Notes: generated from the sequence alone by a model not told the origin. A DNA stretch of 64,000 nucleotides from Candidatus Moraniibacteriota bacterium (GCA_030648835.1 JAUSGT010000002.1:12108-76107); one strand, 5' to 3'; numbered from the stretch's first letter, positions 54,750-64,000 are shown. Program-made: numbers and translations.

Positions 54750-56132
54750 ATGGCTAAGAAAATGAAAAAGGTTGTCAAAAAGGCAAAAAAATCTTTGAAG
54801 AGACGCGTGAAAAAAAACGCCCGCAAACGCGCTCACAAAAGAGCCGGTAAAAAACAGCGAAGGGTGATTCAAAAACGACAGACGAAGAAGAGAGGGAGAG
54901 TGTCCGCGAAACAATCGAAAAAGAAATCTCATATCAAAAAATCAAAAGCTGGTAAGAAGCAGCGTGCCAAGCTTGCGAAAAAGAAATCTTTCAGCAAGAA
55001 AGAGCGATCGGAGAAGAAACAGAGCGCTTTGGTGGAACTTTTGGCGCGTGGCAAGCAGCGGGGATTTGTGACGGAAGATGAAATTATCCATATCCTTCCG
55101 GATGTGGAGATGGACCTCGATAACTTGGAACATCTCTATGAGCAGTTGGAAAATTCCGGTATCCGTATCGTCGGGTCGGAGGAAATGCTCAAACTCGATA
55201 TCCACAAAGTAGGGGAAGAGTTTGGCAAGAAAAGCAAAGGCAAAGGAAAAACCAAAGCGGCACCGAAGGCCAAAGACAAAATGATGGATCTCGGCGAAGA
55301 GAGTACCTCGGATCTCGTGCAAATGTATCTCAAGGAAATCGGCCGGGTGGCGCTTTTGAACGGCGAAGAAGAAGTCCGGCTCGCCAAGCTCATAGAGAAA
55401 GGCGATCTGGCGGCAAAACAGCGGCTGACCGAAGCCAACCTGCGTCTCGTGGTATCCATCGCCAAGAAATATGTCGGCCGCTCGCACAATCTTTCTCTCC
55501 TTGATCTCATTCAGGAGGGGAATATCGGATTGTTTCGGGCCGTTGAGAAATTCGATTATCGCAAAGGGTACAAATTTTCCACGTATGCGACCTGGTGGAT
55601 CCGTCAGGCCATCACTCGCGCGCTGGCCGATCAGTCGCGCACTATCCGTATTCCGGTGCATATGGTGGAAACCATCAACAAGTACGCGCAGATCACGCGT
55701 CGTTTGGTGCAGGAATTGGGTCGCGAGCCGCTGGCGGAAGAAATTGCCGCGGAAATGAATCTGGAAGTGGACAAAATCCGCCATATCCAGAAAATTTCTC
55801 AGGAAACCGTGTCGCTCGAAACATCGGTCGGTGACAACGAAGACGACAGCGTACTTGGGGATTTCATTGAAGATACGGAAACGGTGATGCCGCATCAGGC
55901 CGCTTCGCGCAAGTTACTTAAAACACATATCTCGGACATTTTGAACGAACTCACTCCGCGGGAACAAAAAATTCTGCGTATCCGTTTCGGATTGGAAGAC
56001 GGCGTGACGCATACCCTCGAAGAGGTGGGACAGGAATTCGGTGTGACACGCGAGCGTATCCGCCAGATCGAGGCCAAGGCGTTGGAGAAAATTCGCGAGC
56101 ACGAAAGTCTGAAAAAACTCCGGGACTATTGA
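54750..56132 (+). CDS. rpoD: RNA polymerase sigma-70 factor RpoD with about 100-aa polybasic N-terminal extension
   Basis: Regions 1.2-4 are present ([33 protein letters not shown]). The first 100 aa are K/R-rich ([36 protein letters not shown]...). Confidence 0.9.
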
Positions 56133-58459: not shown

Positions 58460-58546
58460 GGCAGCCGTGTATCACCGGTTGCCCTTTTCTTTTTTTTCAT
58501 TTAGAATACTGACGTCGCCAAGTAGGCGATTTATAATAGAAAATAT

Positions 58547-58621
58547 TCCGCGGTAGCTCAGCGGTAGAGCGAGGGACTGTTAATCCCCAGGTCACAGGTT
58601 CGAATCCTGTCCGCGGAGCCA
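58547..58621 (+). tRNA. tRNA-Asn (anticodon GTT), CCA encoded
   Basis: TCCGCGG acceptor. GCTCAGCGGTAGAGC D-arm. Anticodon loop CTGTTAA. T-arm ACAGGTTCGAATCCTGT. CCGCGGA-G-CCA. Confidence 0.85.
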
Positions 58622-60190
58622 CATGGGATTTGCGTCGCCGAAAGCGACGCTTTTCTGTTTTCTGGAGCGGTTTTTCAGAGGTTCGAATGTGCCTAAATTT
58701 TCTTCTTTTGAATTTGAGACAAGAATCAGTGGTAAAAGCGCGGAATCCGCATCAATGCTGATGTTTTTGTCTTTTAGGAGGAGGTTCGAACCTAGGGCGG
58801 ATAAAATAACCTTTCTGGCATGCTGACCTCGCTCGGTGAATGATTCTTGGGCGTCACTGGCGAACCGAAGAATATTATCAGCGGTCTGAAGCCAGCTGTC
58901 GACTCGGTTGTCGGTATCGTTCAGAAGTTCGTGCAACTTTGATTTTTCCTGATTGACCGTTGATTTCTTGCGTGTAAATTCTTCCTCGCTGATTTCACCG
59001 GCCGAGCGCATGTCGATAAGTGCGTCGAGCTTGTGGACGCAGGCTTCATAATTTTTCTGTTGGTTGGCAAGGATGGCGTTTCGATCATCGGCTTCGCGTC
59101 CGTTTTCATTTTGAAGCCATTTCATCGCCCAGTCGTGAAATTCCTGAGGCGGCCGAACACGCGCTAATGTGCTGGTGACCTGTCTTTCCAATTCTTTCAC
59201 CTCGATGCATTTCTGACCGCACGGTCCTTTTTGTTTGGTGCAGTGGTAATAAGTATAATAATGGACATTGCCATTCTTATTTCTTTTTGTTTTATTTTCG
59301 GCCGTGATCATAGCACCACATTCGCCGCAACGAATCATACCAGTATAGGCGAAGGTGTGTGTTTCGGGTTTCGGTTTGCTGCCTCGGCCGAGAAGTGCCT
59401 GGACGCGATCGTATTCTTCTCTGGTGATCATCGGTTCGTGTTTGCCTTTGTGCCAATTTCCGCTGCCTTGCGGCCACTCGAACCAGCCGTAGTAAAAAGG
59501 ATTATAAAGCACTCGATAGAATCCGCTGCGCGCCAGCTTTTTGAAGCCCCATTGATTGACGGCAATCTCATGGACTCGCGGTGCCGTGTATGTGCCGCTT
59601 AAAACCATATCAAACATTTTGCGAATAATTGGAAACATTTTCGAGTCCTTGCGGATCGTCTTGAATCCTTTTTGTTTATCCGGCGTATTCAAATATCCGG
59701 TCGGCGCCGGGCCGGGATGCCAACCGAGTTCGACTTTGCGTCTGAGGCCGCGTTTCACATCGATGCCTTTGTTATCATTTTCCAATTTCGCCTGGCTACA
59801 CAAAAGATTCAGCAGGAATTTATCATTGGGCGTATTTTTGAATGCTTGCCCGGGAGTTTGTATTTGGAGCAGCTTATTTTGATCCATGAGATAAACCAGA
59901 TAGCCGGTATCCATCGAATTTCTTGAAAGACGATTTGGATGCCAAGTTAAAATTCCATTGGCTTCGCCTTTCTCGATGCGGCGCATCATTTCATTGAAAA
60001 TTTTTCTGCCTGGCGCCTTGGCCGAGTAGGATTCTTCAAGCAAGTTCACGATTTGAACCTTTTCGCGTTTGGCCAGTGTTTCCAATTCGCTCTTTTGCGA
60101 ATCAATGGAAAGCACTTGGCGGTCTTCCTGCTCCGACGATTTTCGAGCGTAGAGAAAATATTTGAGTTTTGGTTGCGCTTCCTGATTCAT
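58592..60190 (-). CDS. Large serine recombinase (integrase)
   Basis: N-terminal resolvase domain YARKSSEQEDRQVLSIDSQ with the catalytic Ser. Recombinase domain. Zinc ribbon CGECG...HYYTYYHCTKQKGPCGQKC. Coiled-coil. The ORF reads through the tRNA terminator hairpin and ends inside the tRNA-Asn 3' half: ...MWLRGQDSNL is the antisense of the tRNA T-arm. The start is moved to MNQEAQPKLKYFLYARKS. Confidence 0.85.
   Translation of the reverse strand: MNQEAQPKLKYFLYARKSSEQEDRQVLSIDSQKSELETLAKREKVQIVNLLEESYSAKAPGRKIFNEMMRRIEKGEANGILTWHPNRLSRNSMDTGYLVYLMDQNKLLQIQTPGQAFKNTPNDKFLLNLLCSQAKLENDNKGIDVKRGLRRKVELGWHPGPAPTGYLNTPDKQKGFKTIRKDSKMFPIIRKMFDMVLSGTYTAPRVHEIAVNQWGFKKLARSGFYRVLYNPFYYGWFEWPQGSGNWHKGKHEPMITREEYDRVQALLGRGSKPKPETHTFAYTGMIRCGECGAMITAENKTKRNKNGNVHYYTYYHCTKQKGPCGQKCIEVKELERQVTSTLARVRPPQEFHDWAMKWLQNENGREADDRNAILANQQKNYEACVHKLDALIDMRSAGEISEEEFTRKKSTVNQEKSKLHELLNDTDNRVDSWLQTADNILRFASDAQESFTERGQHARKVILSALGSNLLLKDKNISIDADSALLPLILVSNSKEENLGTFEPLKNRSRKQKSVAFGDANPMWLRGQDSNL
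58632..58663 (+). terminator. Rho-independent terminator after tRNA-Asn
   Basis: GCGTCGC-cgaaa-GCGACGC-TTTTCTGTTTTCT. Confidence 0.7.
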
Positions 60191-60191
60191 A

Positions 60192-60944
60192 TTATTTTTT
60201 AAAAAGCGGCAGCGAATTTTCGTATTGCAATAAATTTCCGCTGTTTGAGATGAATATTCGAATGGTCGGGTATTTCGGTTCGGCTTCGAGCTCGGCTGGT
60301 GTTTTATACTCCTTATCCTCATAGAGCCATTCCCAGCGATCATTCTCATTGTCTTTGGAGACTGGTTGTGCTGTGAAGTTATCTTTTATCGAAGAATACA
60401 TTTTTGGCAGGGCATGTTCGAGATATCTCTCGCTGATAGTTTTAATTTGTTCAGTGCTTATCGGTGGGGAGAACAGTGCACTGCGCGAGTCATCGCAAGT
60501 TGCTTGGCCTTTCGGATAAACCAATCCAACATTGACCATCTCATGCGTTTTAGGAAATACTTCGAATCGGTAGACTTCGCAGCTATCGGATACGAATTTG
60601 GTTGATTCATAAATGTTCACAGTTCTTTGCCATTCTTGTGGAGTGGTTATGTGACTGCCACCGCCTCCGGGAAGCGGTTCGCTTGATCCGACCGTGAAAT
60701 TTGACGGCGCTTGCGAGCTTATAAAAATTACCGGATAATTTTCATCGCCCATAAAATTGGCAATAGTTTGCTCGTCTTGTTGCAAGTCTTTCTGGGTTGG
60801 AGTTTGCCGTTTTTGTGTTTGCTCTTGGGCTCCGAAATTGCCCGAAAGCGGTGCCTTCTTTGCTCGGAGGTTATAAACCCCGACAATCGCCACCATAGCT
60901 GTTACGGCTGAAATTATGGCGATAGATTTTGTGTTTTTTGTCAT
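60192..60944 (-). CDS. Hypothetical membrane-anchored protein (island cargo)
   Basis: N-terminal TM IAIISAVTAMVAIVGVY, then a roughly 220-aa extracytoplasmic domain with no recognised family. Confidence 0.4.
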   Translation of the reverse strand: MTKNTKSIAIISAVTAMVAIVGVYNLRAKKAPLSGNFGAQEQTQKRQTPTQKDLQQDEQTIANFMGDENYPVIFISSQAPSNFTVGSSEPLPGGGGSHITTPQEWQRTVNIYESTKFVSDSCEVYRFEVFPKTHEMVNVGLVYPKGQATCDDSRSALFSPPISTEQIKTISERYLEHALPKMYSSIKDNFTAQPVSKDNENDRWEWLYEDKEYKTPAELEAEPKYPTIRIFISNSGNLLQYENSLPLFKK

Positions 60945-61233
60945 AGTTTTTTTGTTAATTATTAGTTATCGACCCAAGCATAACATGCGCCCAAGGCTGA
61001 AAGAAGTCAAATGCCAAAATTGCTGTTGTTTAAAGGTTTTTTAGGAGTAGTTGCCTTGAAATCCGATGAAGTTTCAATGAAGAGTTGATGAAGTGTTTTC
61101 TCTGAAATCTACCCCAGTTTCACCCAAGCTTTACCCCAACCTCTATTCGGTATAATTTTTTGACGGCCGCGCCGTCTTTATTTAAGACTAGTCTTGATAA
61201 TTTTTCTTATTAAAGTACTTCTTATTATAGAGT

Positions 61234-61674
61234 TCATGGTGGCCTATGGTGTGGGTTCATAGTGGACTCTGACCGGGGTTCACTATGACCCCCGGTACTT
61301 TTATACAACCGTGGGTTTATCCGATATGCGGTTCCAGGCCAGCGTCCATATTTGGCGGTGCCTTTTTTTGTTTCGATTAATTCCAGCTGCAACAATTTTT
61401 TTCTGACGCGCTTGCAAGTCGATTGGCAGAAGCCATAGGCAGCAAAGCCGCGTTCTTTTTCGCCTCGAGTCATGAATGATTTATCGGTATGCCAAAACCA
61501 GCCGTCTTTGGCGGCGTAGCGGTTGGATAGATGGCACAGCACTAGGAAGAAATCACGCTCGGCATGAGAAAGCGCATGGCGCAATTTTTCGTCATCAAGC
61601 GGTATGTGCGGCACCAAAAAGAAGTTTATATTTTTAGCGGGTGTTTTCGGGTTCGGTTGATTCATATGGTTCAC
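61234..61674 (-). CDS. Hypothetical protein with replication-initiator-type HTH (HTH_36-like)
   Basis: GFAAYGFCQSTCKRVRKKLLQLELIE resembles the wHTH of phage/plasmid replication proteins. Confidence 0.35.
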   Translation of the reverse strand: MNHMNQPNPKTPAKNINFFLVPHIPLDDEKLRHALSHAERDFFLVLCHLSNRYAAKDGWFWHTDKSFMTRGEKERGFAAYGFCQSTCKRVRKKLLQLELIETKKGTAKYGRWPGTAYRINPRLYKSTGGHSEPRSESTMNPHHRPP

Positions 61675-61942
61675 TAATTATTTTGGCTACTTTTTCACTA
61701 ATGGCAGTTTCGACTTGTCGGCCGACTGCCTGATCGATTGGATGAAAAATATTGATATTTTGATTGGTTACTTTGCGGGTTGGATAGACCAAACGGTATC
61801 CGCCATCTCTGCGGCTGAACACGGCGACCGAGCCCATCCAGAATTTGTCATCGAGCACAAACGAAACAAACCCGAGGAGGCCGTCCTTGGGTTTAACCGG
61901 ATAAAATTGAATTTCGCTAATTGAGGTTTGTTTGGTATTCAT
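61634..61942 (-). CDS. SpoVG-family protein
   Basis: IQFYPVKPKDGLLGFVSFVLDDKFWMGSVAVFSRRDGGYRLVYPTRK...IFHPIDQAVGRQVETAISEKV follows the SpoVG conserved pattern. Confidence 0.5.
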   Translation of the reverse strand: MNTKQTSISEIQFYPVKPKDGLLGFVSFVLDDKFWMGSVAVFSRRDGGYRLVYPTRKVTNQNINIFHPIDQAVGRQVETAISEKVAKIISEPYESTEPENTR

Positions 61943-62162
61943 GGTTGTTCACTACATTTTTATTGAAATCATCGATAGAGGGCTCGCCCATATAGGTGAT
62001 TTTATAAAGCTTGAAAAGATTATTGGCGCGCAAATTTGCTTCCTCATCAGAAAGTCGCACGCCGTAGCGTTTTTCATAGAGCTCGTTGAATTCTTCGATG
62101 GCTTCTTGAGATAGCATAAAAAGACTGGCCCAATTGGGACTAGTCTTTATCTGTCTACTCAA
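61917..62162 (-). CDS. Hypothetical small protein (island cargo)
   Basis: 81-aa ORF, acidic. No domain recognised. Confidence 0.25.
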   Translation of the reverse strand: MSRQIKTSPNWASLFMLSQEAIEEFNELYEKRYGVRLSDEEANLRANNLFKLYKITYMGEPSIDDFNKNVVNNHEYQTNLN

Positions 62163-62605
62163 GTTCTACTCGGATCAATGCGAGACACCTTAGCCTCGAA
62201 AGGGGAAAATAAAAAAGGGCTATAACTTCTCGCTACCAACAATGCGCCGTTCAAAAAACGACTGTTGATAACAGGAAGTCATAGCCCCGTCGCGTTTAGT
62301 TCCGAAAAATCGGAACGCCGTCAGGCAAACTTTCTGCGTTTGTATTTATATTTTAACAAATAAAATAAGGTTGTCAATGGGCGGACTGTGGATAATTTTT
62401 GGTTATCGCCACATTTCAGATATAAGACACAATTGTCATAGTTCTGAAATGCCAGGGGATCTATTTGGCACATAGCTAAAAGTGATTTAGTAAATAGACT
62501 AAGAATACCTTTATTTGAGGGAAAAAATTAGGCCTTGACTTCTCTATATCAATAGAGTAACATAGTAACATCACTTACTATATTACTTAAAAAAGGTATA
62601 AAAAC

Positions 62606-64000
62606 ATGGAAGAAATTCTTAAATATGTACAAAACCAGCTAGTTCAAGCGCCCTTCCGGCTTAAATCCTATGCTCAAGATGAGCAAGGCAAAAAATATCC
62701 GCAAAGAAATATTTATATCAAGGTTGATAAATATTTTCGGGATTTTTTGCATAACTCAAATGTTCAGGATCGCTGGATTATAATCCCAGGTCTTCGCGGT
62801 GTCGGCAAAACTACTATTCTCGCGCAGATTTTTTTAAATCACTATCAAGAAGCGGGTGATCGCAGAATGCTCTACATTTCGCTGGATGAAGTTGTAAATG
62901 TCCTTGGTTCATCATTGAAAGATGTTTTAAATGCCTATGAAAAAATAATCGGTGAAAGTTTTGAGAAGCTTACCCAGCCAGTTTTTATTTTCATTGATGA
63001 AGCGCAGTATGATCCCAAGTGGGCGTCAGTATTAAAGTCAGTATATGACCGGTCAAATAAGGTTTTTGTTGCTTGCAGTGGCTCATCGGCTGTTTCTTTG
63101 CAAACAAATCCAGATGTAATTCGCCGTTCTATTTTTCAGAAACTTTTTCCAACCAGTTTTTCTGAATTCCTGATGATTCGTGATGGCAAATTTCCGATCA
63201 AAGATCTGAAGAAAAATATAAAAGACGCGCTGTTTAATGCTGATTCCGCCAAGGACGCTTATGAAAAATTAAAAAAATATGAGCAGAGCGTAAGCAATGC
63301 TTGGTCATCCATAGATCGTCAATATGTCGATGAATATTTGAAGATCGGCACTCTGCCCTTTGCTATTCGAATGAAAGATGAAGTGCGGGTGTATCAAACA
63401 ATCACTTTGCTTTTAGATAAGGTGATTAATCAAGATGTCCAAAGTCTTGGTCGGTTTGACACTAAAACCCTCGTTTACATTAAAAGGGTATTATTTTTAC
63501 TGGCCGAGTCTGATGTGGTGAGTATTCAAAAACTTGCCGCAACACTTGAAACCACTGTAAATACAGTTTCCAATATTCTTGAAGTTTTGGAACAAGCAGA
63601 GCTGCTTATTCGTGTTATGCCTTACGGTTCTAATTCTAAGAAGGTCAGGAAGCCTTCGCGCTATCAATTTATGTCCTCGGCTATGCGCTCAGCGTTTCTT
63701 TCTGTCGCCGGCAACGAGCAAATCTTCGCCGGTCAAAAAGGTCGGCTTATGGAAGACATTGTGGCTATGACTCTGTATCGAGAGTTTGTTGCCAGCAGCC
63801 GCGGAGCGCTCAATTATGATAGCTCAAAAGCTGGCGCGGATTTTATATTAACCATCGCCGGCAAGAGCATCATTCCTATTGAAGTCGGTATGGGTGAAAA
63901 ATTGGGCACGCAAGTCCGGAACACAATGAATAAAATCGGTTCATCCAAATACGGCATAGTTATTTGCAGAAATTCACTTACTCTTTTAGAGGACGCCAAT
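62606..64000 (+). CDS. AAA+ ATPase of the COG1373 / AAA_14-DUF4143 type (partial; runs off window end)
   Basis: Absent from the ORF track because no stop occurs before position 64000. Hand translation from the ATG at 62606 is open to the window end. Walker A IIIPGLRGVGKTTIL. Walker B FIFIDEAQYDP. The C-terminal region is typical of DUF4143. Confidence 0.7.
   Translation, partial: MEEILKYVQNQLVQAPFRLKSYAQDEQGKKYPQRNIYIKVDKYFRDFLHNSNVQDRWIIIPGLRGVGKTTILAQIFLNHYQEAGDRRMLYISLDEVVNVLGSSLKDVLNAYEKIIGESFEKLTQPVFIFIDEAQYDPKWASVLKSVYDRSNKVFVACSGSSAVSLQTNPDVIRRSIFQKLFPTSFSEFLMIRDGKFPIKDLKKNIKDALFNADSAKDAYEKLKKYEQSVSNAWSSIDRQYVDEYLKIGTLPFAIRMKDEVRVYQTITLLLDKVINQDVQSLGRFDTKTLVYIKRVLFLLAESDVVSIQKLAATLETTVNTVSNILEVLEQAELLIRVMPYGSNSKKVRKPSRYQFMSSAMRSAFLSVAGNEQIFAGQKGRLMEDIVAMTLYREFVASSRGALNYDSSKAGADFILTIAGKSIIPIEVGMGEKLGTQVRNTMNKIGSSKYGIVICRNSLTLLEDAN

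Follow-up and report, generated by a model that had tools for sequence, protein, structure and literature searches.

Analysis of the tRNA-Asn region in the window, the whole 64,000-nucleotide stretch of Moranbacteria (CPR) DNA under study, indicates that the sequence from 58615 to beyond 64000 most probably forms the left side of a small integrative element, which a large serine recombinase (LSR) has inserted at the 3′ end of the tRNA gene. The integrase ORF has no stop codon of its own; it crosses the terminator hairpin of the tRNA and terminates 30 nt inside tRNA-Asn, as a sequence-only reading of this DNA had described. Its final nine sense codons, W-L-R-G-Q-D-S-N-L, together with the TGA stop occupy 58592-58621 and match, as a perfect reverse complement, the CCA end of tRNA-Asn together with its acceptor 3′ strand and T arm. 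About eight terminal integrase codons are host tRNA antisense DNA and not element DNA, and the gene is thus a hybrid ORF across attL. The tRNA is intact with an encoded CCA and, in our site model, would provide the B half-site of attL.

58547-58621, plus strand: tRNA-Asn(GTT) (ARAGORN; Rfam RF00005, 71 bits)
58592-60190, minus strand: large serine recombinase, 532 aa (Pfam; PHROG integrase, 6e-64; zinc cysteines)

On the minus strand, the open frame of the recombinase extends from 60349 down to 58592. The ORF had been taken to begin at 60349, but its actual start is the ATG at 60190, as called in an identical Logan contig. With Pfam matches to Resolvase (8.8e-20), Recombinase, and Zn_ribbon_recom, and with a coiled coil in a SHOCT/DUF4164 region (Pfam), the protein is an LSR in its catalytic, recombinase, zinc-ribbon, and coiled-coil regions. 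Among 37 sequences the Y14-A-R16-K-S18 motif is nearly invariant, while R87 and R90 as well as the zinc-ribbon residues C288, C291, C317, and C324 are invariant. The integrase distantly matches those of SPbeta and A118 and is weakly related in sequence to solved LSRs (E ~1e-9). A Pfam search of the window revealed no tyrosine recombinase (Phage_integrase domain); the sole recombinase present is of the serine type.

Comparison of related loci delimits the tRNA-proximal end of the element. A 3.95-kb module (58615 to ~62570) is 90% identical to locus L002, which lies in an unrelated context, and the flanks of the two diverge immediately past the tRNA-proximal core TGGCTCC. An equivalent module is shared by the pair L005/L006 with 94% identity, and tandem arrays, in which tRNA-Asn is adjoined by a second LSR, are present in L006, L041, and L022. 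Of 14 metagenome contigs with the identical tRNA-Asn 3′ half, 5 carry an LSR at this position, with four different P′ arms, and others continue into native terminators, representing empty sites. The L002 boundary, the tandem arrays, and the occupied and empty alleles together bear out the earlier proposal of an LSR-mediated integrative element at tRNA-Asn. The identical sequence also forms a separate assembly-graph unit in SRR13727527 that breaks inside the tRNA. Neither a circular attP junction nor an isogenic empty site turned up, and the contigs tested were not circular.

At the opposite end, we identified eight far-end sites (core + N14 + TT[C/A]GAAC) on the expected strand, 4.7-10 kb upstream of the integrase gene, and none on the control strand; these come from about 55 loci, and the majority of elements may be longer than the 10-kb flank searched. 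The far end of L002 lies 9 kb from the integrase gene, and delimited relatives span about 6-12 kb. There is no attR-like site in 60-64 kb of the window, so that the right boundary lies beyond it, in agreement with the previous remark that attR is not visible. A direct repeat of 15-60 nt of the tRNA 3′ segment at the distal end is the pattern of tyrosine-integrase islands. The suggestion to recognize attR by a direct repeat of 15-25 nt was the wrong expectation for this clade, whose attL and attR share ~6 bp, GCTCCG. Even with up to 3 mismatches allowed, the 27-nt 3′ end of tRNA-Asn is not repeated anywhere else in the window, and only the ~6-bp core repeat, not 15-25 nt, would be expected at the attR of this element.

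The lack of an attR in 60-64 kb and the end of L002 homology near 62570 would also fit an immobile, decaying remnant followed by ordinary host DNA from the ATPase gene at 62606 onward; this ATPase is solitary in many unrelated contexts and is found in none of the integrase loci compared. We regard this as quite unlikely, since the ORF of the integrase and its catalytic and zinc residues are intact, as are the terminator, both internal motifs described below, and the operon, and the separate assembly-graph unit likewise speaks against it. Moreover, the GC content drops further across the ATPase, and in L002, with its far end at 9 kb, cargo is similarly placed behind a related promoter region. 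The window copy of the element may be currently active.

LSRs are typical phage integrases, the best PHROG match of the recombinase is annotated as integrase, and a few relatives are found on IMG/VR contigs. Nevertheless, it is very improbable that the element is a prophage. The delimited relatives are small, at the 6-12 kb given above, and carry restriction-modification (R-M), Abi, TA, and methylase genes and a TrwB-like coupling protein; the 25 Pfam families most often found in their 91 ORFs include no phage structural family (capsid, portal, terminase). Only 2 of 56 viral-collection matches exceed 40% identity over most of the protein length, and Pfam and PHROG searches detected no capsid, portal, terminase, or tail genes in the visible part of the element.

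Conservation analysis showed that an integrase running into a tRNA is a clade-wide design rather than an isolated case. Of 80 related genome loci, 43 place the stop codon of the integrase within a tRNA on the opposite strand (Asn 21, Gln 7, His 4, Ser 3, Trp 3, and Ile, Lys, Glu, Leu, and Gly one each). The T arm serves this clade as half of the target site, and hence the integrase frame carries on past the junction into the tRNA. Of the closest 120 protein clusters, at least 73 (about 70%) have tRNA-antisense tails, and 22 (about 18%) carry P-type “x-R-T” tails. The latter tail is encoded by the far end of the element; the tandem arrays at tRNA-Asn explain its occurrence, and the conserved portion can be explained by DNA constraints on the P arm. 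The integrase clade is very large and apparently undescribed.

58615-58619, unstranded: predicted crossover core GGAGC, tRNA nt 70-74 (sole block common to tRNA-type and element-type junctions)
58598-58604, unstranded: T-loop GTTCGAA, putative zinc-ribbon-domain (ZD) motif of the B arm (B-arm logo, 42 loci)
58622-58631, unstranded: inner P′ arm CATGGGATTT (antisense AAATCCCATG; P′ logos)

Homology between the window and L002 stops at GGAGC, attL/attR pairs at other loci have GCTCCG in common, and the attL/attR identity block comprises only 5-6 bp, GCTCC(G). The crossover is placed from such identity blocks and from symmetry, not from one element's matched attB/attP/attL/attR set, and the exact position of the 2-bp central dinucleotide at which LSRs cross over, with no long attP/attB identity, is a predicted one. 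We propose that attP overlaps the integrase 3′ end and that strands are exchanged inside GGAGC (tRNA nt 70-74); the integrated integrase ORF would thus continue into host DNA. In the integrated state, the ORF would be closed by the stop codon in the T-arm antisense, and in the excised or tandem state it would enter the far end of the element (P arm) and end with an “x-R-T...” tail.

Both B and P arms have GGA at nt 15-17. Counting from the CCA antisense, the T-loop motif of the B arm is at nt 18-24; TT[C/A]GAAC occupies nt 18-24 in B arms versus nt 23-29 in P arms, so that element arms carry it 5 bp farther out from the crossover than tRNA arms do. The same 5-bp shift of the ZD motif between attP and attB was described for the A118/LI integrase (Rutherford et al. 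2013, PMC3783163), although in our loci it is established for one arm of each site only. Following the standard site grammar of LSRs, GGA would be a recombinase-domain contact in both arm types, and the ZD motif TT[C/A]GAAC would be the tRNA T loop in attB and lie 5 bp farther out in attP; this assignment of protein domains to contacted bases is putative. The AAATCC of the inner P′ arm is conserved family-wide and lies symmetrically to the ATGG of P arms around position ~6, suggesting another recombinase-domain contact. In the loci compared, the P′ arm has no recognizable ZD motif and B′ is unconserved, which is unusually asymmetric for an LSR, and the site model is therefore incomplete. Since the attB half that follows the tRNA shows no conservation, the target is specified by the tRNA alone.

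The phage LSRs (A118/LI, SPbeta SprA, Bxb1, phiC31) resemble the clade in the order of catalytic, recombinase, zinc-ribbon, and coiled-coil regions, in short att sites with few common bases, and in a ZD motif 5 bp nearer the centre in attB than in attP. In contrast to the clade, which targets tRNA 3′ ends, they target a protein-coding gene or an intergenic site. The clade further differs from them by a ZD motif in only one half of each att site, by an attP that overlaps the integrase stop, by two additional conserved in-gene motifs, and by small, non-phage, defence-carrying elements. Tyrosine-integrase islands at tRNAs (Islander/TIGER class, P4-like) likewise have an integrase abutting the 3′ end of an intact tRNA, tandem arrays, and accessory or defence cargo, but their enzyme family is unrelated, and the clade lacks their long duplicated tRNA 3′ segment, with a core of only ~6 bp. 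An attP inside a gene, whereby integration alters the gene product, is also found in the tyrosine-integrase systems of SSV1-type archaeal integrases and of the mycobacteriophages BPs and Brujita, with their integration-dependent immunity: the SSV1 integrase gene is split into two inactive parts, and in BPs integration into a tRNA exchanges the C-terminus of a protein. The clade studied here changes only the last ~8-40 integrase residues. Mageeney et al. (2020, PMC7192596) stated that no use of t(m)RNA genes by serine integrases was known and found 14 such cases among 297, flagged as needing proof. Among the Prochlorococcus tycheposons, 910 of 937 elements have a tyrosine recombinase and the rest an LSR; unlike the present clade they occur in other hosts and mostly use tyrosine recombinases, and the passages of that preprint on serine recombinases do not describe LSR att-site structure.

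58632-58662, plus strand: predicted intrinsic terminator of the tRNA, element-borne (terminator scan; fold)

The hairpin GCGTCGCCGAAAGCGACGC at 58632-58650, with a 7-bp stem and a GAAA-type loop, is followed on the tRNA strand by the T run TTTTCTGTTTT and lies within the integrase codons K-S-V-A-F-G-D-A. This predicted structure has the architecture of an intrinsic terminator, a GC-rich hairpin preceding a U run. A similar hairpin and T run with differing stem sequences are present in most of 55 loci (z < -2 in 33). Integration would cut the tRNA off its native terminator, and a substitute hairpin and T run would come from the integrase coding sequence.

58678-58689, unstranded: “-66” motif GAGGTTCGAATG (integrase codons T-F-E-P; consensus GTT[C/A]GAACCTC)
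58781-58795, unstranded: “-169” motif GAGGTTCGAACCTAG (integrase codons L-G-S-N-L)

Two degenerate copies of the tRNA 3′ half had been noticed near 58672-58693 and 58783-58805, and T-loop-like copies are indeed present at 58676-58693 and 58781-58801. The “-169” motif contains the 10-bp palindrome GGTTCGAACC. AGGTTCGAA occurs four times in the window, at 3 sites inside a 200-nt span, versus 0.82 expected, a number reached in 0 of 100 shuffles. The “-66” motif has a constant distance from the junction in most loci; it is 83 bp from the arm motif in 16/16 tRNA-adjacent loci and 88 bp in 8/9 others, and its spacing to the “-169” motif is 103 bp. Its Glu codon is always GAA and its Leu codon mostly TTA, and some loci read the motif in a different frame (A-R-T). 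The Ser codon of the “-169” motif, S468, is TCG in 58 of 60 genes versus a background of 15.5%, the strongest synonymous constraint across the whole integrase gene. Outside the tRNA-encoded tail, codon entropy is reduced by at least 1 bit only at S468, L470, and positions 501 and 502 (73 integrase genes). The GGTTCGAACC motifs 66 and 169 nt from the junction are under DNA- or RNA-level selection.

Decayed tRNA 3′ halves from earlier integrations, as had been suggested, are an extremely improbable origin of these copies. Tandem integrations at tRNA-Asn do occur, and the window copies are slightly tRNA-like outside the core motif (e.g., CCTAGGGCGGA versus CCTGTCCGCGGA), but this resemblance is not conserved beyond the 10-12-nt motif, and an LSR crossover at tRNA nt 70-74 would duplicate no tRNA half. 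Instead, both are family-wide motifs inside conserved codons, kept at -66 and -169 in loci of 35-50% protein identity, and their constant distances and fixation at synonymous sites contradict the relic reading. The alternative term of arm-site repeats is a reasonable reading, and our best guess is that the motifs are putative accessory integrase-binding sites. We also consider it unlikely, though less so, that they act in RNA, by pairing of the palindromes in the integrase mRNA, by pairing with the tRNA-antisense tail, or in tRNA read-through. The two palindromic copies are mutually complementary, the integrated integrase mRNA has a 30-nt end complementary to tRNA-Asn, and synonymous-site constraint does not separate DNA from RNA function. 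However, the “-66” motif accepts TTAGAAC (C/A) like the P arm, where the contact must be protein-DNA, and this variant would introduce an unpaired position into an RNA duplex; the spacings (83, 103, and 105 bp) come close to whole numbers of helical turns, and no covariation is available for an RNA helix.

For the putative accessory binding sites at -66 and -169, a possible analogy is offered by the Tn3/gamma-delta res sites, where a serine recombinase likewise has extra sites within ~100-170 bp of the crossover. Accessory sites II and III of res are dimer sites, and the enzymes are small serine recombinases; LSRs are not known to require accessory sites. It is conceivable, albeit at low probability, that the clade has its own directionality control, in which phased accessory ZD motifs combine with the integration-swapped C-terminal tail and a 3′ end turned antisense to an abundant tRNA. 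The accessory ZD motifs would be separated from the arm motif by 83 bp, or about 8 turns, in attL and by 88 bp, or about 8.4 turns, in attP. If so, integrated and free forms would differ in nucleoprotein geometry and integrase expression, these would be the first accessory sites in a large serine integrase, the classical directionality factor could be replaced or supplemented, and an attB with only a half-site (tRNA T arm) could be re-targeted.

60192-60944, minus strand: 250-aa protein (ORF; 82% identical in L002, 29% in L005/L006)
61234-61674, minus strand: 146-aa (143 as called) protein (weak replication-initiator/DnaD-like PHROG matches, E ~1e-3)
61634-61942, minus strand: SpoVG-like protein, 102 aa (Pfam SpoVG 30.8 bits, barely above cut-off)
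61917-62117, minus strand: 66-aa protein of two predicted helices, encoded first in the operon (ORF and homologues)
62350-62377, minus strand: promoter-like site TTGACA-16-TAAAAT, extended TG (11/12 consensus matches)

This promoter-like site precedes a five-gene operon. The SpoVG-like, HTH, and 250-aa proteins, regarded before as cargo, are not variable cargo; in the closest relatives they are part of a conserved operon next to the integrase gene: the 146-aa protein is present in L002, L005, L006, and L007, and the SpoVG-like protein in these four as well as in L043 and L149. The 250-aa protein has no match in Pfam, PHROG, or a further family search. LSR excision requires a separate recombination directionality factor, and the 66-aa protein is a candidate by co-occurrence only. 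As the most widespread partner of the integrase clade, it has homologues upstream of the integrase gene in 28 loci and is 62-100% identical in 65 clusters; its model (pLDDT 80) gave no informative fold match.

62485-62605, plus strand: conserved promoter/operator region of the probable cargo gene (promoter scan; locus comparison)
62606-64000, plus strand: AAA_14/DUF4143 ATPase, 465 of 477 aa in the window (Pfam; PADLOC PDC-S01, E 5e-32)

The region 62485-62605 is common to the stand-alone ATPase loci L142-L146 and partly to L002, and bears the palindrome CTCTATATCAATAGAG (62542-62557) between the -35 and -10 hexamers of the promoter. The ATPase is a probable cargo gene and a defence candidate; the GC content drops to 0.34-0.41 across it, and its promoter/operator region is shared with the cargo side of L002.

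The integrase gene at the tRNA-Asn of the window reads through a hairpin into the tRNA itself, at a junction made up of the following features.

Features at the integrase junction (coordinates, strand, feature)
58509-58537, promoter-like site of tRNA-Asn
58547-58621 (+), tRNA-Asn(GTT), called by ARAGORN and Rfam
58632-58650, hairpin GCGTCGCCGAAAGCGACGC between the tRNA and the integrase body, followed by a T run on the tRNA strand
60349 to 58592 (-), open span of the integrase frame
Host side, core genes, among them dnaG, rpoD and a gene for an M15 peptidase

The sequence-only reading had the integrase frame crossing the terminator hairpin into the 3' half of tRNA-Asn, and this is borne out: the nine C-terminal codons, W-L-R-G-Q-D-S-N-L, together with the stop are the exact antisense of the CCA end, the acceptor 3' strand and the T arm. 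Among the Rfam families searched over the window, the tRNA alone reaches the gathering score. The first 53 codons of the open frame overlap the preceding gene, and the start called independently in an identical Logan contig is the ATG at 60190 (532 aa). It carries the Pfam domains Resolvase, Recombinase and Zn_ribbon_recom and a coiled coil, matches a PHROG integrase family (6e-64), and has the SPbeta and A118 integrases as its nearest solved relatives; in an alignment of 37 relatives the Y-A-R-K-S motif is conserved and two arginines and four cysteines are invariant. The enzyme is a member of the large serine recombinase (LSR) family, with all testable defining features present.

Comparison with related loci showed that the integrase module is mobile and has a sharp tRNA-proximal boundary. 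An integrase 97% identical to that of the window (P0001) lies on a 44-kb ENA contig, L002, in the same gene order: 66-aa protein, SpoVG-like protein, 143/146-aa protein, 250-aa protein and integrase. From 58615 to ~62570 the two loci are 90% identical, with unrelated flanks on both sides. On the integrase side identity runs through ...AAATCCCATGTGGCTCC, after which tRNA antisense follows in the window and TAACTATGGAGGAAGTTCGAAC in L002; no tRNA was found within 10 kb in L002. A second pair of loci, L005 and L006, has the same ~3.9-kb module in common (94%) with flanks that differ at both ends. The palindrome CCCAATTGGG near 62130 was dropped as a candidate attR because homology to L002 extends past it to ~62570. 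The G+C comparison of 58.6-64 kb with the host part of the window gave ~0.49 in the host, 0.40-0.49 in the module and 0.34-0.41 in the ATPase gene. Logan contigs from SRR13727527 that match the window exactly end within the tRNA, at 58564/58581, and shortly after the start of the ATPase gene, at 62731, and look-up with the SpoVG, M15 peptidase and 66-aa proteins returned only such broken contigs. The ends are branch points of the graph, which fits the presence of these sequences in further contexts in the sample. A host-specific 37-mer had no match in JGI metagenomes, few close relatives of the integrase were found in the viral collection, and five contigs inspected for circular forms (L147-L149, L086 and L087) had no terminal overlap. 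On the host side, the primary sigma factor (54750-56132, +) has an extremely lysine-rich N-terminal extension of ~110 residues.

Reading into a tRNA is a property of a large clade, beyond the copy in the window. A protein search with the integrase gave 7822 matches at E ≤ 1e-10, more distant serine recombinases included, and those with a source name are mostly from Patescibacteria. The best 120 clusters, with identities of 49-97%, include 56 with the tail (W/L)L(R/P)GxDSN(L/P/Q)..., 17 that stop at most five codons from the anchor, and 18 missed by this anchor rule, most of which also end in DSN. In species-representative genomes the integrase stop lies inside an opposite-strand tRNA gene in 43 of 80 loci, the target being tRNA-Asn (21), Gln (7), His (4), Ser (3), Trp (3), or Ile, Lys, Glu, Leu and Gly with one locus each; in ~10 further loci a tRNA-type tail lies at a contig end or beside tRNA-like sequence uncalled by ARAGORN. 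Support for the tRNA-targeting clade comes from the best 120 protein clusters and dozens of genome loci, mostly of Patescibacteria.

A different tail, with x-R-T at codons 8-10, ends 22 of the best 120 clusters, and reads as DNA ...GGAnGAnGTT[C/A]GAAC. Downstream of such integrases, a second LSR follows after 8.5-10 kb in the three loci L006, L041 and L022; it runs into tRNA-Asn in the first two, and in L022 the alignment stops ~35 nt short. These loci are tandem arrays: the gene of the distal integrase continues into the proximal element at its far end, and the x-R-T tail is therefore the attP-type continuation of the integrase gene, into a P arm, i.e., the far end of an element.

The far ends themselves were searched for in the 10 kb upstream of each integrase gene, as the core of the locus itself with TT[C/A]GAAC at the right distance. 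Of 99 motif sites, eight match, all of them on the expected strand; the control strand gave no match.

Far-end sites, distance from the integrase gene
L002, 9.0 kb
L008, 9.7 kb
L016, 6.7 kb
L030, 4.7 and 8.3 kb
L045, 5.4 kb
L046, 8.6 kb
L079, 10.0 kb

With distances of 4.7-10.0 kb, the elements are thus about 6-12 kb long. On their host side, several far ends (L046, L079) are flanked by sequence that resembles a tRNA terminator, which fits displacement of the native terminator by integration. In the window, 62447 and 63633 were rejected as P-arm-like sites, as the motif is present and the core mismatched.

attL and attR of one element have GCTCCG alone in common. In L008, attL is TTGCTCCGG and attR is TGGCTCCGC; the exchange in this locus took place inside GCTCCG and changed the encoded CCA to CAA. 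The direct repeat of 15-25 nt that the sequence-only reading expected is accordingly not what this clade leaves behind, and none is present in the window. The block common to the window and L002 ends at GGAGC (58615-58619, tRNA nt 70-74), and the inner motifs CCAT (in the P' arm, the element side at the integrase 3' end) and ATGG (P arm) are mirror images about position 6, window ~58616. These sequence patterns would place the crossover dinucleotide within this block.

Counted from the T of the antisense CCA, TT[C/A]GAAC starts, as the T loop, at nt 18 in the tRNA (B) arms, and at nt 23 in all 14 P-type junctions. Sequence logos show GGA at nt 15-17 in both arms, with the motif directly after it (B) or five bases later (P). 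The shift is also seen independently of the anchor: the spacing between a motif inside the integrase gene (58678..58689 in the window, termed -66) and the arm motif is 83 bp in 16/16 tRNA-adjacent loci and 88 bp in 8/9 others. For the A118/LI integrase, the zinc-ribbon domain (ZD) motif is 5 bp nearer the centre in attB than in attP, and the position bound by the recombinase domain is common to the two sites (Rutherford et al. 2013, PMC3783163). With the centre at ~6, the motif spans bp 12-18 of the half-site in B arms and bp 17-23 in P arms; published ZD half-site ranges are 11-19 and 16-24. Assignment of the arm contacts to protein domains is putative. In contrast to textbook LSR sites, the P' arm in this clade holds only AAATCC and a variable hairpin, and B' lacks any conservation; a search of the P' arm for a ZD motif at the mirror-image position found none. 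Dozens of natural attL, attR and attP-like junctions fit the 5-bp zinc-ribbon-shift model and constitute a natural test of it.

Two T-loop-like copies inside the integrase gene had been noticed in the sequence, and both are indeed present (58676-58693 and 58781-58801); AGGTTCGAA is enriched in the window, with four matches against 0.82 expected and at least four in 0/100 shuffles. They had been taken as possible relics of serial integrations, a reading that does not hold, since they sit at synonymously fixed codons and mostly constant distances. In an alignment of 73 integrase genes, codon use at conserved residues was compared with the background of the genes themselves, and only four columns outside the tRNA-encoded tail lose at least 1 bit: S468, L470 and positions 501 and 502. 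S468 is TCG in 58/60 (background 15.5%), L470 is CTC in 33/46 and position 502 is TTA in 25/34; AAC is the only codon used for Asn469, and GAA the only one for the Glu of the second motif. A 10-bp palindrome lies within the DNA consensus, GGTTCGAACCTC. In most loci, B-type and P-type alike, the motifs start 169 and 66 nt ahead of the anchor, and spacings of -204/-66 or -189/-88 are seen in some subfamilies. The frame in which the -66 motif is translated differs in several loci (A-R-T, not L-E-P), so that the DNA is kept and the peptide altered. Codon constraint, fixed spacing and frame change together argue that the motifs are neither chance nor decayed tRNA halves. An antisense ORF (58623-58826, +) was rejected as their cause because the synonymous constraint is restricted to the motifs and does not span the overlap. 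The -66 copy shows the same C/A tolerance as the P arm, and at 83, 103 and 105 bp the spacings approximate whole numbers of helical turns; we therefore favour putative accessory integrase-binding sites over action of the motifs at the RNA level, which we consider unlikely. No copies of these putative binding sites were found on the P-arm side.

Most of 55 loci have a stem-loop ~10 nt past the tRNA end, followed by a T run. The stems vary in sequence with the architecture retained, and the hairpin z-score averages -2.3 and is below -2 in 33/55 loci. The hairpin belongs to the element, because P-type junctions have it too; in the subfamily of the window it is coded within K-S-x-A-F-G-x-A-N-P of the integrase. 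As no U run follows it on the integrase strand, it is predicted to act on the tRNA transcript only.

Fourteen JGI contigs with exactly the tRNA-Asn 3' half of the window give a view of occupied and empty sites. An LSR reads into the tRNA in five of them, with four different P' arms; two of the five are tandem, and in one (L156:21-1631) the LSR has just 23% identity to that of the window. This second LSR family enters the same tRNA-Asn 3' end, so that tRNA targeting may have several origins, or the depth of the clade may go well beyond the present sample. Native-looking downstream sequence is found in three contigs, two of them with a clear terminator hairpin, and in one contig a terminator precedes a P-arm-like sequence of reverse orientation. 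The remaining five carry a displaced tRNA-Asn 3' fragment 24 nt downstream. In these contigs (L150, L151, L153, L158 and L161) the fragment belongs to a different tRNA-Asn, of which it retains the 3' two-thirds (anticodon stem onwards), and a terminator follows. The arrangement is a scar left by replacement of the tyrosine-integrase type, with hardly any element remaining between the copies. In L159, also from JGI, a ~70-nt perfect inverted repeat starts at the tRNA acceptor 3' end (CGGAGCCGAATAGC...GCTATTCGGCTCCG); it makes a terminator-like hairpin of unusual length, with the predicted integrase core inside it.

Serine integrases are the main tools for inserting large DNA and had been supposed to avoid tRNA genes. 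Unusually for LSRs, this clade combines a tRNA 3'-end target, one-sided att sites, an attP overlapping the integrase stop, an embedded terminator and two constrained motifs. It represents a new target class for serine integrases, with at least ten tRNA species reached via the universal T arm and the other target half free to vary, and an integrase whose attB is set by the tRNA 3' end could become a broad-host-range integration tool. Our computational analysis also explains an annotation oddity, recombinases with the C-terminus "WLRGQDSNL" or "LLRGWDSNPRP". The survey of Mageeney et al. (2020, PMC7192596) called tRNA use by serine integrases unreported, listed 14/297 such cases and held that experimental proof would be required. 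Among tycheposons, a minority of elements carry LSRs. In the literature covered, which was incomplete, we found no description of this clade or architecture among serine recombinases at tRNA genes in CPR bacteria, and an earlier description is possible.

Upstream of the integrase gene, the module and its neighbour comprise the following features.

Operon and ATPase features (coordinates, strand, feature)
61917-62117 (-), 66-aa protein, first operon gene
62350-62377, operon promoter, good promoter match
Operon member, 250-aa protein without assigned function
Past the operon, 120-nt promoter/operator region common to stand-alone ATPase loci and partly to L002
62606-64000 (+), AAA_14/DUF4143 ATPase, PADLOC candidate PDC-S01 (5e-32)

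Homologues of the 66-aa protein lie upstream of the integrase in 28 loci and are 62-100% identical across 65 clusters, far better conserved than the integrase beside them. It has no match in Pfam, PHROG, NCBIfam or PADLOC, and its predicted two-helix hairpin no fold match (best E 3.1); by association, it is a candidate partner or directionality factor. The SpoVG-like protein is barely above the Pfam cut-off, the 146-aa protein has weak replication-initiator/DnaD-like matches, and these two and the 250-aa protein are confined to the closest relatives.

The ATPase looks like a self-contained, horizontally moving cassette together with its upstream region. Copies with 80-92% protein identity occur in many CPR lineages (including Doudna-, Magasanik-, Nomura-, Falkow-, Kerfeld-, Taylor- and Gribaldobacteria), solitary and in unrelated contexts, and DNA homology (~80%) begins ~120 nt ahead of the start codon in the five loci compared (L142-L146). 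In its promoter (62535-62563), the perfect palindrome CTCTATATCAATAGAG (62542-62557) lies exactly between -35 (TTGACT) and -10 (TAACAT); it is kept in stand-alone ATPase loci, L002 has a related sequence ahead of its AbiE cargo, and the palindrome is probably an operator.

Cargo of delimited relatives includes methylases, DpnI, type III R-M, AbiE, AIPR, an OLD-type ATPase and MazE, and two of them also encode a TrwB-like coupling protein; the 25 Pfam families met most often in their 91 ORFs include no phage structural family. To our knowledge, mobile elements of CPR bacteria are poorly known and conjugative mobilisation in them is little documented; the elements offer a route for the spread of defence genes among these bacteria. 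Just past P-type junctions, TrwB/TraG-like type IV coupling proteins are encoded at L148:4099-5310 and L149:5231-6421 together with MazE, PIN and methylase genes, which suggests that some elements of the clade are mobilisable by conjugation.
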